Of a stretch of DNA of 64,000 nucleotides, positions 26,486-44,947 are shown in pieces. The DNA lies in IMG/VR virus record IMGVR_UViG_3300020205_002848, positions 1 through 64,000 of that record. One strand, given 5' to 3'. The notes under the pieces are model-generated. The model ran no database searches, was not told the DNA's origin, and was given only the letters and a program-made list of their open reading frames with translations. Position numbers and translations under genes: made by a program. The stretch comes from a virus. How positions within the stretch are numbered: position 1 is the stretch's first letter; the number at the start of each line of letters is the position of its first letter.

Positions 26486-26953
26486 ATGATAACTAAAATA
26501 TCCATATTAGGTAAAGAAAATTCTAAAAAAACTAGGTTAACTAAAGATTTAGCATGTTATTATAATACTAATTTTGTATTGGATTATAAATATCTTATTT
26601 TTGGGAGTTTTGAAAAAACTCCAGAATGTGAGGATTACCTTAAAATTTCCAATGATAGACTATCATTGGAAAATTGGCTTTTAAAGAGTTCCAATAAGAT
26701 ACTATTTTCAGATACTGATGACTTTAGTTTATATTTAGATGTTTCAAAAAAATTCCCAAAAAATAAAAAAGTAAAAGAGGAAATTCTATCAAGAGTTTTA
26801 AATAAAAAGTTTGATTATTATTTTCTAATAAATCCTACCGATGAAATAATTTCAGAAGCTAATAAATTAAAACTAAATATCGAAATATTTAAGGGAGAGT
26901 ATGATGAAATTAAAAATAAATGTATATCATTTATAAATAAGTCTATAAATTAA
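26486..26953 (+). CDS. NadR/AAA_28-like kinase domain with a degenerate P-loop
   Basis: KISILGKENSKKTRLTKDLA versus NadR-type ILGxESSGKSTL..LA; ILFSDTD. Confidence 0.55.
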   Translation: MITKISILGKENSKKTRLTKDLACYYNTNFVLDYKYLIFGSFEKTPECEDYLKISNDRLSLENWLLKSSNKILFSDTDDFSLYLDVSKKFPKNKKVKEEILSRVLNKKFDYYFLINPTDEIISEANKLKLNIEIFKGEYDEIKNKCISFINKSIN

Positions 26954-28046
26954 ATTTTTCTAAAAATTCTGATTCAATTAGATAACCTTTGGTAGAATTA
27001 ATATATCTCTTAGTTATACATAAATTCTCTATAGATCCAATCGTTATTGGATCTATAGAGAATTTAAATCCATAATACACAGATACTTTATGATCAATAG
27101 TTGGGAAAAATCTATGAGTGTGACTTTTTGATAAGTATCCTTTTATAAATTCATCATCGTAATAATCAACGCCATTCCATTTTTCATATAAAAACTTCTT
27201 GTTAGAGTTGGTAATTCTTCTAACCAACTTTTTATACTTATACCAATCACTCGTTTCGGAATCAGATATAATGGTTCCGTTAGATTCTTTAGTATATTTT
27301 ATTTTTCGTTGTATATCACCAACTTTACTAACATTATCAACTCCATATCTTTCTAGACAAGTTTCTCTACACTTTTTAATAGTTTCTGATAATTTTGATT
27401 TAAAAATGGATTTCCAATAGTCAGTCTTTGATAAATATTCATTACCATATCTTTCTAAAAATGTTATTTTTATCTTTTCAATAGTTTGTATAATTTTAGA
27501 ATCAATTGTCTTCTTAAATTGGTCAGTCTTTGAGTATGAATCAACTCCATATTTTTCCAACATAGTTTTTTTAGATTTGTCTTTAAACTCATCAGATGAC
27601 ATCCACTTTCTATTCATCTCTCTACTTTCATCAGTTTTGAAATAAGAGTCAACTCCATATTTTTCCAACATAGTTTTTTTACCCTTTTCAGAACCCTTTT
27701 GAATACCTTTCCATTTAATACTCTCTGTCAATTTAAACTCATCAGTCATTGAATATGACTTAACGCCCCATTTTTCTAAACATGTTTTCTCCTTTACATG
27801 ATTTTTACACATAAAGCAAGAATAATATCCTTTGTCACTTCTGTTTTTATTAACTAAATATTTCGAATAGGGTATATGGTTTTCGGAACTACATATTTCA
27901 CAAATAGCTGTTATTTTATTCTTTGTACCCACTGGTAAGTCATTAACATTGACGAAAATCTCATTAGATATTGTATATCCTAAATTTAAATAGTAAGATC
28001 TATTTCTCAAATTAACTTTAACCAAAACTTTATCCTCCTTAATCAT
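26943..28046 (-). mobile_element. Free-standing HNH-type homing endonuclease with repeated KKT(M/C)LE(K/R)YGV motifs
   Basis: N-terminal CEIC/CFMC zinc site, five LE(K/R)(Y/W)G repeats, C-terminal TIDHKVS...NLCIT..INSTKG; divergent from polB across a 77-bp gap. Confidence 0.75.
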
Positions 28047-28123
28047 ATAAACTATATACTTTTTATTATATATAAAATTATATAAGTCCCATTAGAGACA
28101 AATTTTAAAAAAAAACATAAAAA

Positions 28124-29589
28124 ATGACAAGAGAAGAAAAAATATTCAAGATCGAGTCTTTAAAAAAACAAGCGAGCGAGCTAAAGAAGGAAGCGGATTA
28201 CTACAACGCACTTCAGCTCGCTCTTGTTTAGCCCCCGGTATTTATTATCGGGGGCAAAAGAGACTAAAATTAGTTCTAAATGGAAGTTACGGCGCATTCG
28301 CTACATCCTACTTTATATTATATAATAACCACGTAGCTGGTACAATTACTGCACAAGGCAGGGACCTTACACAAACAATGGACAGGGTCAATGAAGACTA
28401 TTGGTATAACCAGTGGCACAACGACCATGAACTTCATTTTAAATTAGGTATTAAAGATGTAAGTGAAATATCTAAAAGTGAACCAGTTTCTATATATGCT
28501 GATACTGATTCATTATTCGTTTCTTTCAAACCAGCAATTGACCATTGTAATTGGAAAGATTTAATATTCAATAAAGAATATTTAGATTCGATTGATGAGA
28601 AGTTTATCATATTAACAAATGATGAGACAAAAACAAATAATCCTAATTGTTTAGGAATCGCATCTAACTTAGATGATTTATCTGAATTAATAAAAAATGA
28701 TTATAAAGTTTTATTATTCGATGGTAACTTTATTAAAGACAGAGGGTTGAATAAGATGATAAAAAATGGAGTATTCACATCTAGTATTGGGTGGAATTGG
28801 CCAAGTGAGCAAGACTTTATACAGGGTGTTGATCATTTTAGATTTGGTGGATACTTTAAAAAATGTTTAGAAGATTACGCATCATCTTTTGGTGTTGAAA
28901 ATAAAGAAGATTTTGAATTAGAAAGAATATCTGAATCGATTATCAATCTTGCTAAAAAGAAATATATTTGTCACATAACATATGAAGATGGCATCCCATT
29001 TGATAGACTGACTTATCTTTATCCAAAAGGTGTTGAGCTTGTTAGATCGTCTACTCCGGCATTTGCTAGAGATAAGATTGTTGGTATTGTTAAGTATCTA
29101 TTTACACACCCAGATACCTTTAATATAAAAGATTTATTAAAATTAGTTAAGGGTTTAAGGAAAGAGTTTGAGTTAGCTGATATTGATGATATCGCAATGC
29201 AGTCTTCTTGTTCTAATTATGATATTAAGGTTCTAAATGATAAATCATTACCTCTTCAATTTGTATCAGGTGCTCACTTTGCGGTTAAATCAGCAGCTCA
29301 CTATAACTATCTTTTATCAAAGAGTAAAGACCATCAACAAAAGTATGAGTTTATTAAATCAGGGACTAAGATTAAATACTTTGTATGTAAAGATAAATCG
29401 GTAACTGATATGTTTGCTTATATTAGAGGTTCTTATCCACATGAATTTGCACCACCTATTGATTATGATACACAGTTTTCCAAATCTATTTTATCACCGG
29501 TGAATTCTATTATAGAGCCATTGGGAATGCCAGAGATTACTAAAAGGTTATCAGTTGTAATGGATATATTTAGCGGTTTTTCGAAATAG
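28124..29589 (+). CDS. polB: Family-B DNA polymerase, C-terminal half (gp43B-like), interrupted by a 41-nt insert; join(28124..28225,28267..29589), about 474 aa
   Basis: ATG 28124 gives MTREEK...YYNALQLAL; after the insert comes KLVLNGSYGAF (motif B), then ITAQGR, IYADTDS (motif C), KKKY and KGVELVRSSTP. The ORF track start at 28378 lacks motif B. Confidence 0.88.
28226..28266 (+). other. 41-nt stop-containing hairpin insert (candidate ribosomal bypass gap or mini-intron)
   Basis: GTT TAG, then a GCCCCCGGTA-TTTAT-TATCGGGGGC stem; removing it restores Q-x3-K-x3-N-x2-YG. Confidence 0.8.
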
Positions 29590-44604: not shown

Positions 44605-44947
44605 ATGGCTAAAATAATAGACAAAAGAAAAATAATCAGAGAAGAAGGGGCGACTAAAGTTTTAGTCGCCTCTTACTGAGGACGGTACATTATCCACAGG
44701 AGTATCGATAAATGCTATTTTTAATGTAATATTCGCTGATTCTTTTAAATCGGAGCAAATTATTATACAATCAATTGGTAGAGCACTTCGTTTACACTCT
44801 GATAAAAAGAAAGCAAATATCTTTGATTTGGTTGATATTTTTAATTCCAATAATATGAATAATATATTATTTAGACACTTTAAAGAAAGAGAAAAATTTT
44901 ACACAAAAAGACAATATCCTTACAAAATAATCAAAGTTAATCTTTGA
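44605..44947 (+). CDS. uvsW: UvsW helicase C-terminal part interrupted by a 7-nt insert; join(44605..44676,44684..44947), about 111 aa
   Basis: MAKIIDKRKIIREEGATKVLVASY, TGA, then in the +1 frame GTLSTGVSI (motif V), QSIGRALR (motif VI) and IFDLVD...RHFKEREKFY; not in the ORF track. Confidence 0.85.

Follow-up and report, generated by a model that had tools for sequence, protein, structure and literature searches.

The window analysed in this study is a 64,000-nucleotide (nt) stretch of viral DNA, positions 1 to 64,000 of the IMG/VR record IMGVR_UViG_3300020205_002848. Its G+C content is 31.5%, and the parent record is 78.5 kb long and estimated to be 32% complete. The window carries the gene for the C-terminal part of a family-B DNA polymerase (polB-C), in which the reading frame is interrupted within the conserved motif B by a 41-nt gap. 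As shown in Table 1, the coding sequence falls into two segments. The frame of segment 1 reads MTREEKIFKIESLKKQASELKKEADYYNALQLAL; with the GTT codon before the stop included, the frame from ATG 28124 reads MTREEKIFKIESLKKQASELKKEADYYNALQLALV and ends in CTT-GTT-TAG. From 28267, the sequence continues in a different frame as KLVLNGSYGAF (motif B) and onward. The product of segment 2 matched Pfam DNA_pol_B (2.1e-15) and PHROG DNA polymerase (3.9e-44). When 28226-28266 was deleted, the joined product was QLALKLVLNGSYGAF, which contains the intact family-B motif Q-x3-K-x3-N-x-S-Y-G and matches what insert-less relatives encode without a break. A preliminary description of this DNA had placed a frame from ATG 28124 to TAG 28229 and KLVLNGSYGAF in another frame from 28267, and had proposed that deletion of exactly 41 nt restores motif B. 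The coordinates proved correct, and the insert-less relatives encode the same sequence contiguously.

Table 1. Features of the polB-C locus and of the adjacent gene in the window
Feature	Position	Strand	Remarks
Free-standing homing-endonuclease-like gene, 367 amino acids (aa)	26943..28046	-	Divergent from polB-C, 77 nt from its start codon; intact open reading frame (ORF)
polB-C coding segment 1	28124..28225	+	34 codons from ATG 28124, MTREEK...YYNALQLAL
Outer helix, 5' strand AGUCUUU	28155..28161	+	Pairs with 28259-28265 in minimum free energy (MFE) folds
5' stem-loop	28166..28229	+	28166-82 paired with 28215-29; 3' arm over take-off and spacer codons
Inferred take-off codon CTT (Leu)	28223..28225	+	From continuity with gap-less homologues and the family codon-pair rule
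Non-coding gap, 41 nt	28226..28266	+	Spacer GTT, TAG stop, hairpin, A-rich tail, landing codon
In-frame TAG	28229..28231	+	One codon 3' of take-off codon
Gap hairpin	28231..28255	+	Arms 28231-40/28246-55; G+C5GGUA / UAUCG5+C, 10 bp, 5-nt loop
Inferred landing codon CTA (Leu)	28264..28266	+	First CUN triplet 3' of hairpin
polB-C coding segment 2	28267..29589	+	440 codons and stop (29587-89); motif B Lys onward, motif C (YADTDS)

The downstream frame is open from 28096 across the entire insert, and it contains no ATG, GTG or TTG between 28096 and 28378. Motif B therefore cannot be made by re-initiation past the stop, and this explanation was rejected. An alternative genetic code was rejected as well, since TAA, TAG and TGA all occur at the same place among the relatives described below, and the window contains long standard-code ORFs of up to 1679 codons. 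Gene callers shorten such polymerases; in this case they would report an ORF of 403 residues beginning at 28378, and motif B is thereby lost from databases.

The window stretch was found in sequencing runs from 17 studies, mostly of lake water. A DNA contig of a different study (run X2) covers 28091-28388 with the insert intact. Given this contig, the insert is not an assembly artefact. Just 3' of the gap, four differences are listed for X2 (28270, 28272, 28275 and 28276). None of them alters an amino acid, and one changes GTT 28273 to GTA. RNA evidence came from assembled contigs of RNA libraries in two studies. Contig X17 matches 28109-28249 with 100% identity; it extends from the 5' leader past the take-off codon and TAG as far as the hairpin and so includes the 5' half of the gap; for X17, no RNA contigs lie over 28250-28341, and this hole carries no weight either way. 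In contig X18, a variant hairpin (GCCCCCACUGCGUAAGUGGUGGGGGCAAAA / CCCCCACUGCGUAAGUGGUGGGGG) is joined to polB-C coding sequence from 28287 (placed at window 28287-28396). No joined, gap-less form was found among the listed DNA and RNA-library contigs. Because these are contigs only, and DNA carry-over is possible, the RNA evidence is supportive rather than decisive. X18 comes from a lake metatranscriptome and points to a gap-bearing relative in that RNA library, or possibly to carried-over DNA.

Using the C-part protein as query, we collected 32 related viral loci together with two published uncultured phage genomes, LR745206 and LR756502 (635 kb and 642 kb). Ten of the viral loci (raw listing) and both published genomes read QLAL-KLVLNGSYGAF without a gap. 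The gap statistics given here refer to 18 distinct gap-bearing loci, which hold 17 distinct elements. Gap lengths were 36, 39, 40, 41, 42, 43, 44, 46 and 48 nt and covered all three phases. The gaps lay after QLA, QLAL, KLV, NGS or NGSY, all within a stretch of 13 codons in motif B, and the stop at the start of the gap was TAA, TAG or TGA. The window and L020/21 carry nearly the same element, one base apart in the tail (41 versus 40 nt). The basal four to five C-G pairs of the hairpin were invariant in 17/17 elements, and pairs 6-11 covaried (UA, AU, GC, CG, GU). Stems were 8-11 bp long (16/17), except in L027 with its internal mismatch, and loops had 3-6 nt. The spacing from the last coding codon to the hairpin was 6-7 nt in every element (6 nt in 15). 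This linker consisted of a triplet followed by a stop in most elements and of a stop followed by a triplet in three; it held no stop in two (L008 and L031). The 5' boundary was thus fixed, whereas the 3' boundary lay 8-17 nt from the hairpin and showed no conserved junction motif. The tails between hairpin and landing codon were 58% A. Stops in the landing frame were present inside the gap in L006, L018 and L031, and just before the landing codon in L006 (TGA) and L018 (TGA-TGA). In the sequences read, the junction showed no conserved slippery site. Alignment of the relatives thus gave what the preliminary description had predicted, namely contiguous QLAL-KLVLN in insert-less polymerases and covarying stems in insert-bearing ones. 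These results indicate that the structures of the gap family are conserved and covarying, as expected if RNA structure is under selection.

The 151-nt region around the site had an MFE of -51.8 kcal/mol (z = -4.8), and 0/200 shuffled sequences were as stable. The MFE fold consists of the 5' stem-loop, the gap hairpin and an outer helix (28155-61/28259-65). Equivalent outer pairings were present in the predicted folds of L006/7, L018, L020, L023 and L031, for example AGUCAUU/GAUGACU in L018. The 10-bp stem 28231-40/28246-55 that had been described earlier was present in the MFE fold. Its proposed extension by CTCTT(28221-25)/AAGAG(28258-62) fared less well: the strands are complementary, but the pairing is unused in the MFE fold and is not conserved in relatives. 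The 5' stem had been regarded as competing with the gap hairpin. Its pairing was recovered, but the two structures form together in the MFE fold, so there is no competition between them.

Hairpins of the C5/G5 type were rare outside the gap. The one described here is the only such hairpin in the 64-kb window, and in related genomes they were nearly restricted to the polB gap site. None was found in the 436-kb gap-less genome G001, and the gap-bearing genomes G000, G002, G003 and G005 had them in polB, plus one elsewhere. This lone hairpin outside polB sits between convergent genes and is terminator-like. The 78 nt ending at the QLAL site had folding energies of -22 to -32 kcal/mol in 10/10 distinct genes gapped there, compared with -3 to -11 kcal/mol in seven gap-less genes; the separation was complete (Mann-Whitney p = 4e-4, relatedness not corrected). 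Ten to 12 pairs of the 5' stem-loop were retained in 10 sequences, with some compensatory and G-U changes. In L032, which has its gap after KLV, the stem-loop was shifted to its own gap site. In the Tyr-site elements, the gap hairpin extended over the take-off codon, and this took the place of a separate 5' stem-loop. Covariation of the hairpin was counted by anchoring on the C and G runs. A formal covariation analysis from a MAFFT alignment of the whole region was set aside for the hairpin, whose arms were misaligned by length variation, so that only the 5' stem-loop is informative there. A search of Rfam gave nothing above threshold, with two sub-threshold chance matches only.

We found that in 12/17 elements the take-off codon and the codon before resumption agree in bases one and two and encode the same amino acid (binomial p = 1.6e-11 against 1/16). 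The cognate pairs, each within one four-codon box, were CTT/CTA (six), CTG/CTA, GCT/GCA, GCT/GCT, GTT/GTA, GTT/GTT and TCT/TCA, so that matched pairs mostly went from NNU to NNA. The five Tyr-site elements were non-cognate, pairing TAT with AAC, AAC, AGC or TAA, and TAC with GAC. The hop suggested earlier for the window, from Leu CTT(28223) to Leu CTA(28264), was supported by the occurrence of CTT-to-CTA in six distinct elements at this site. It had also been remarked that the take-off codon lies one codon before the stop. This is true and is the norm of the family, in which the constant is the 6-7 nt from take-off to hairpin. One host tRNA presumably reads both CUU and CUA. No tRNA genes were found in the 64-kb window. 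A hop from GTT 28226 to GTT 28273, already doubted in the preliminary description, was rejected, since it would delete the catalytic Lys and the relatives' spacers (TTT, GGA, AGA, GCT and GTC) have no in-frame match. The rule that landing takes place at the first cognate triplet past the hairpin was also dropped; it held in 13/13 elements with a 2-nt match, but was weak because A-rich tails make it expected by chance (p ~0.07).

The codon-pair rule, the fixed spacing and the phase independence are what a hop from a take-off codon to a landing codon predicts. From these comparisons, we consider it likely that the 41 nt are a programmed translational bypass cassette in polB-C, analogous but not homologous to that of T4 mobA/gene 60. 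In the proposed mechanism, the ribosome would read 34 codons from ATG 28124 and place peptidyl-tRNA-Leu on CUU 28223-25, where the very stable C5/G5 hairpin 6 nt downstream would block decoding or translocation. Hairpins located at the entrance of the channel are reported to be able to impede the binding of tRNA in the A site (PMC7282821). Ribosomes that fail to hop would be caught by the TAG two codons further on. In the others, the peptidyl-tRNA would unpair and the mRNA would slide; behind the ribosome, first the 5' stem-loop and then the gap hairpin would refold, which would favour movement in the forward direction. Refolding of the exiting mRNA has been proposed to favour forward sliding in gene 60 (10.1101/2024.12.09.627546; PMC5462505). 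The tRNA would then re-pair with CUA 28264-66, the first cognate triplet past the hairpin, and decoding would resume at AAA 28267. The predicted product is a full-length protein of 474 residues that spans the gap with an intact motif, with the junction peptide EADYYNALQLALK.

Several points weigh against hopping. The five Tyr-site elements lack a cognate landing codon, and three of them (L012-14) are in-frame gaps. A stop or slow codon directly 3' of the take-off codon is a criterion for bypass; in the window, GTT comes next and then TAG, the stop does not adjoin the take-off codon in most relatives either, and two elements have no stop in the 6-nt linker, unlike gene 60. A 2-nt target-site duplication could account in part for the matching of the flanking codons, and the 5' stem-loop may be conserved in part because the co-transferred segment 1 is of common descent. 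The RNA-library contigs may hold carried-over DNA and cannot show the absence of a minor spliced form. In addition, the window contig represents ~32% of its genome, so a second polB-C in this phage is possible.

A second candidate gap of this kind is present in the window, in the C-part of a UvsW-like helicase gene (window 44605-44944). The frame from 44605 reads through VLVASY, with the Tyr codon TAC at 44674-76, and then meets TGA. After a gap of 7 nt (44677-44683), reading resumes at GTLSTG (motifs V and VI). Three nucleotides separate the Tyr codon from the end of a 13-bp hairpin on its 5' side. Among 80 related UvsW-like loci, 68 were contiguous, and eight distinct variants were gapped by 4, 6, 7 or 17 nt. 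In every gapped variant, a stop adjoined the Tyr codon and a hairpin of 11-13 bp lay just upstream. The landing triplets were GAC, AAC, TAG, TAA or TAC, a near-cognate Tyr set that resembles the one of the polB Tyr-site gaps. Of the mechanisms considered, only hopping would fit all of these gaps, and the one in the window is a second, shorter candidate for a hop.

The preliminary description had offered precise RNA excision as the alternative to a hop. In such a mini-intron, an endoribonuclease of phage or host, together with an RNA ligase, would be directed by the hairpin to remove 36-48 nt and rejoin the mRNA, leaving it to be translated in the normal way. Precise removal would restore the motif in every relative and in any phase, the conserved, covarying hairpin could serve as the recognition element, and the five Tyr-site elements would be explained, as splicing needs no cognate flanks. 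However, in both studies the RNA-library contigs retain the gap, or a variant form, with no joined one listed, and the 3' boundary varies without a junction motif while the 5' boundary is fixed. Splicing also does not require the cognate flanking codons seen in 12/17 elements. The size is far below that of group I/II introns, there is no Rfam match at threshold, and known splicing of any kind would need more than the 4-7 nt of the UvsW-like gaps in this genome. We know of no intron class of this size in bacteria or phages. Excision is therefore disfavoured and appears improbable to us; if true, it would represent a new class of ~40-nt protein-dependent mini-introns in bacterial viruses.

Two other explanations were given still less weight. 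Frameshifting or readthrough with the insert translated would suit the window itself, where the downstream frame is open across the whole insert and a shift by -1 ahead of TAG would yield LAPGIYYRGQKRL followed by KLVLNGSYG; L012, L013, L014 and L024 also have in-frame gaps with a single stop. As a general mechanism this is excluded by the occurrence of all three phases and by the landing-frame stops within the gap in L006, L018 and L031. Each of the three stop codons occurs, the junction showed no conserved slippery site in the sequences read, and nearly the same element is 41 nt long in the window and 40 nt in L020. In addition, lengthening motif B by 12-16 residues, either between Gln and Lys or between Tyr and Gly, would disrupt the helix that binds the nucleotide, as understood from the RB69 and T4 polymerases, and the standard code of the genome, with its long ORFs, argues against readthrough. 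We regard translation of the insert as very improbable. The remaining explanation, that a mobile GC hairpin inactivated polB-C and that the phage uses another polymerase or a separately made truncated protein, gains some room from the window contig, which is about one third of the genome and leaves another copy possible. Against it, segment 2 (440 codons) was an open frame without a second break in the 14 gap-bearing loci in which it was read through to build the tree described below, and several of these segments were near-identical to gap-less genes. The four listed X2 differences downstream of the gap were synonymous, the gap structures are conserved and covarying, and there is no start codon in 28096-28378 from which motif B could be re-initiated. 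A second intact polB-C had been named at the outset as a finding that would make this copy a pseudogene. We looked for one in the gap-bearing genome G002 (98% complete), in which a Pfam DNA_pol_B search matched only the distant N-part and one interrupted C-part. A dead or dispensable gene thus seems highly unlikely.

The 367-aa ORF upstream of polB-C matched Pfam DUF7487 (3.4e-17) and, weakly, PHROG homing endonucleases (1e-7 and 7.5e-7). In eight homologues, a C-terminal motif, PTIDHK..G..NLCITKR.INS.K, was invariant and resembled DH...N...N. An AlphaFold model of the 367-aa protein (pLDDT, the predicted local distance difference test score, 74) gave no significant match in the Foldseek PDB or in a wide structural search, and a PDB sequence search for a nuclease fold found nothing. 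A homologue of this gene lay directly upstream on the opposite strand in 14/18 distinct gap loci and in 0/9 gap-less loci (Fisher p = 1.5e-4). In the gap loci, it was sometimes fragmented.

Segment 1 was mosaic. The window and L020 shared 94% identity in this segment and 67-81% downstream, whereas L003, the closest polymerase overall (86% protein identity), was gap-less and only 74% identical in segment 1. In a maximum-likelihood tree of segment 2, gap state and gap site were scattered, and the gap-less state must have changed five times or more given the well-supported branches. Segment 2 was identical in L006 and L008, which had different gaps at different sites, and L011, which has no gap, was almost identical to the gap-bearing L014. 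These results suggest that the endonuclease gene and the gap co-occur and move together. In MobA/gene 60, protection by the gap from the neighbouring endonuclease has been shown experimentally (summarised in 10.1101/2022.08.31.505936). By analogy, the gap here would be the immunity part of a mobile cassette made up of the endonuclease gene, segment 1 (including the stem-loop) and the gap itself. The gap would interrupt the likely target of the putative endonuclease, the motif-B DNA of gap-less phages, and would be copied along with the nuclease.

Two observations concern the surroundings of these genes. A small ORF beside the endonuclease gene (26486-26953) matched PHROG nicotinamide-nucleotide adenylyltransferase (1.4e-12) and, weakly, AAA_28. 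In L023:1391-3001, L027:1372-3001 and L032:1373-3001, segment 2 was interrupted again after about residue 82 by a ~1.6-kb insertion that encodes another endonuclease-like ORF (...GIEFQGDIWHANP...).

To our knowledge, efficient long-range bypass in bacteria and phages has been shown only for T4 gene 60. We compared the polB locus with the T4 record NC_000866. As in T4 gene 39/mobA/gene 60, two genes with separate initiation together encode an essential replication enzyme, the coding segment before the gap is short (~34-46 codons), and a 5' stem-loop lies upstream of the take-off codon. The non-coding gap of ~40-50 nt likewise has an early stop, a stable hairpin and an A/U-rich 3' part, and it is patchy in distribution and linked to a free-standing homing endonuclease gene, with the nuclease sometimes decayed or lost. 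The two systems also differ in many respects. The gap lies in DNA polymerase motif B here and in a topoisomerase in T4, and the gap sequences were unrelated by eye in the sequences read (a C5/G5 hairpin and 36-48 nt here, 50 nt in T4). The hairpin begins 6 nt past the take-off codon, whereas the T4 take-off codon is inside the stem, and the stop here is usually one codon away from take-off. Take-off codons are Leu, Ala, Val, Ser or Tyr here and Gly or Asp in the gene 60 homologues. Gaps occur at four different positions here, but those of the gene 60 family are within one codon of a single site; the MobA/gene 60 element is inserted at codons Asp45/Gly46 of the topoisomerase II large subunit with a gap of ~50 nt, which is not so here. 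The nuclease belongs to DUF7487, has 367 aa and is encoded on the opposite strand, whereas MobA is an HNH protein of 269-279 aa. The polymerase split predates the cassette, unlike in T4, as gap-less, endonuclease-less relatives are split alike. Given the different host gene, endonuclease and gap sequence, the polB element would be an analogue of the MobA/gene 60 family and not a member of it.

A Shine-Dalgarno-like tetramer was present upstream of 2/39 window ORFs, which equals background, and the leaders were A/T-rich. With no use of Shine-Dalgarno pairing, the 'mini-SD' landing aid of gene 60 probably does not apply here. If hopping works on such ribosomes, landing models would need revision.

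Two other systems resemble the polB elements. The mitochondrial 'byp' elements of the yeast Magnusiomyces capitatus, reportedly described by Lang et al. in 2014 and cited in 10.1101/2022.08.31.505936, are bypassed inserts of 27-55 nt. They too are short GC-rich hairpin inserts in an AT-rich genome, with matching or near-matching triplets, tolerance of imperfect matches and signs of mobility. The byps, however, are scattered over many genes of one organelle genome and have no endonuclease link, whereas the polB elements, which occur in phages, occupy a single motif of a single gene and move together with an endonuclease gene. The second system comprises frameshift-stimulating hairpins, which obstruct translocation or the binding of tRNA in the A site (PMC7282821); there too, a stable hairpin follows the decoding site at a short, fixed distance on the 3' side. 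When the codon before take-off is in the P site, the hairpin is 12 nt from the first base of that codon, a distance that inhibited A-site binding in that system. In contrast to that system, the polB elements have no slippery sequence, and a jump of 36-48 nt is needed rather than a 1-nt shift.

According to Manning and Atkins, all known phage bypass cases are homologues of one MobA element in topoisomerase genes, and the word 'polymerase' does not occur in the text of that paper (10.1101/2022.08.31.505936). A full-text literature search found no report of bypass in a DNA polymerase or in huge phages. If the polB hop is true, it would constitute an independent bypass family with a different gene, structure, endonuclease and probable host phylum, widespread in lake metagenomes. 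Its natural variants in length, site, codon pair and stop position would serve as a ready-made mutational series on the requirements of hopping. The combination of an endonuclease and an untranslatable immunity insert appears to be recurrent among selfish elements that invade conserved parts of essential genes.

The split of polB was found throughout the clade. An N-part of ~500-515 residues (exonuclease and motif A) lies ~100 kb from the C-part (motifs B and C), with positions G001:C1:204250-204768, G002:C1:233011-234216 and LR745206 233286-233612, and the split persists in genomes without endonuclease or gap. The N-terminal half was not found on the window's contig. The closest cultured matches of the C-part were phages of Flavobacterium, Chryseobacterium, Tenacibaculum and Prevotella. 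These relatives, together with the scarcity of Shine-Dalgarno-like motifs, fit a Bacteroidota host, and the source is a huge, AT-rich, uncultured lake phage that probably infects this phylum. L028, L030 and L031 lack an 80-residue stretch between motifs B and C (residues 98-177 of the window's polB-C protein), which is thus a variable, dispensable insertion.

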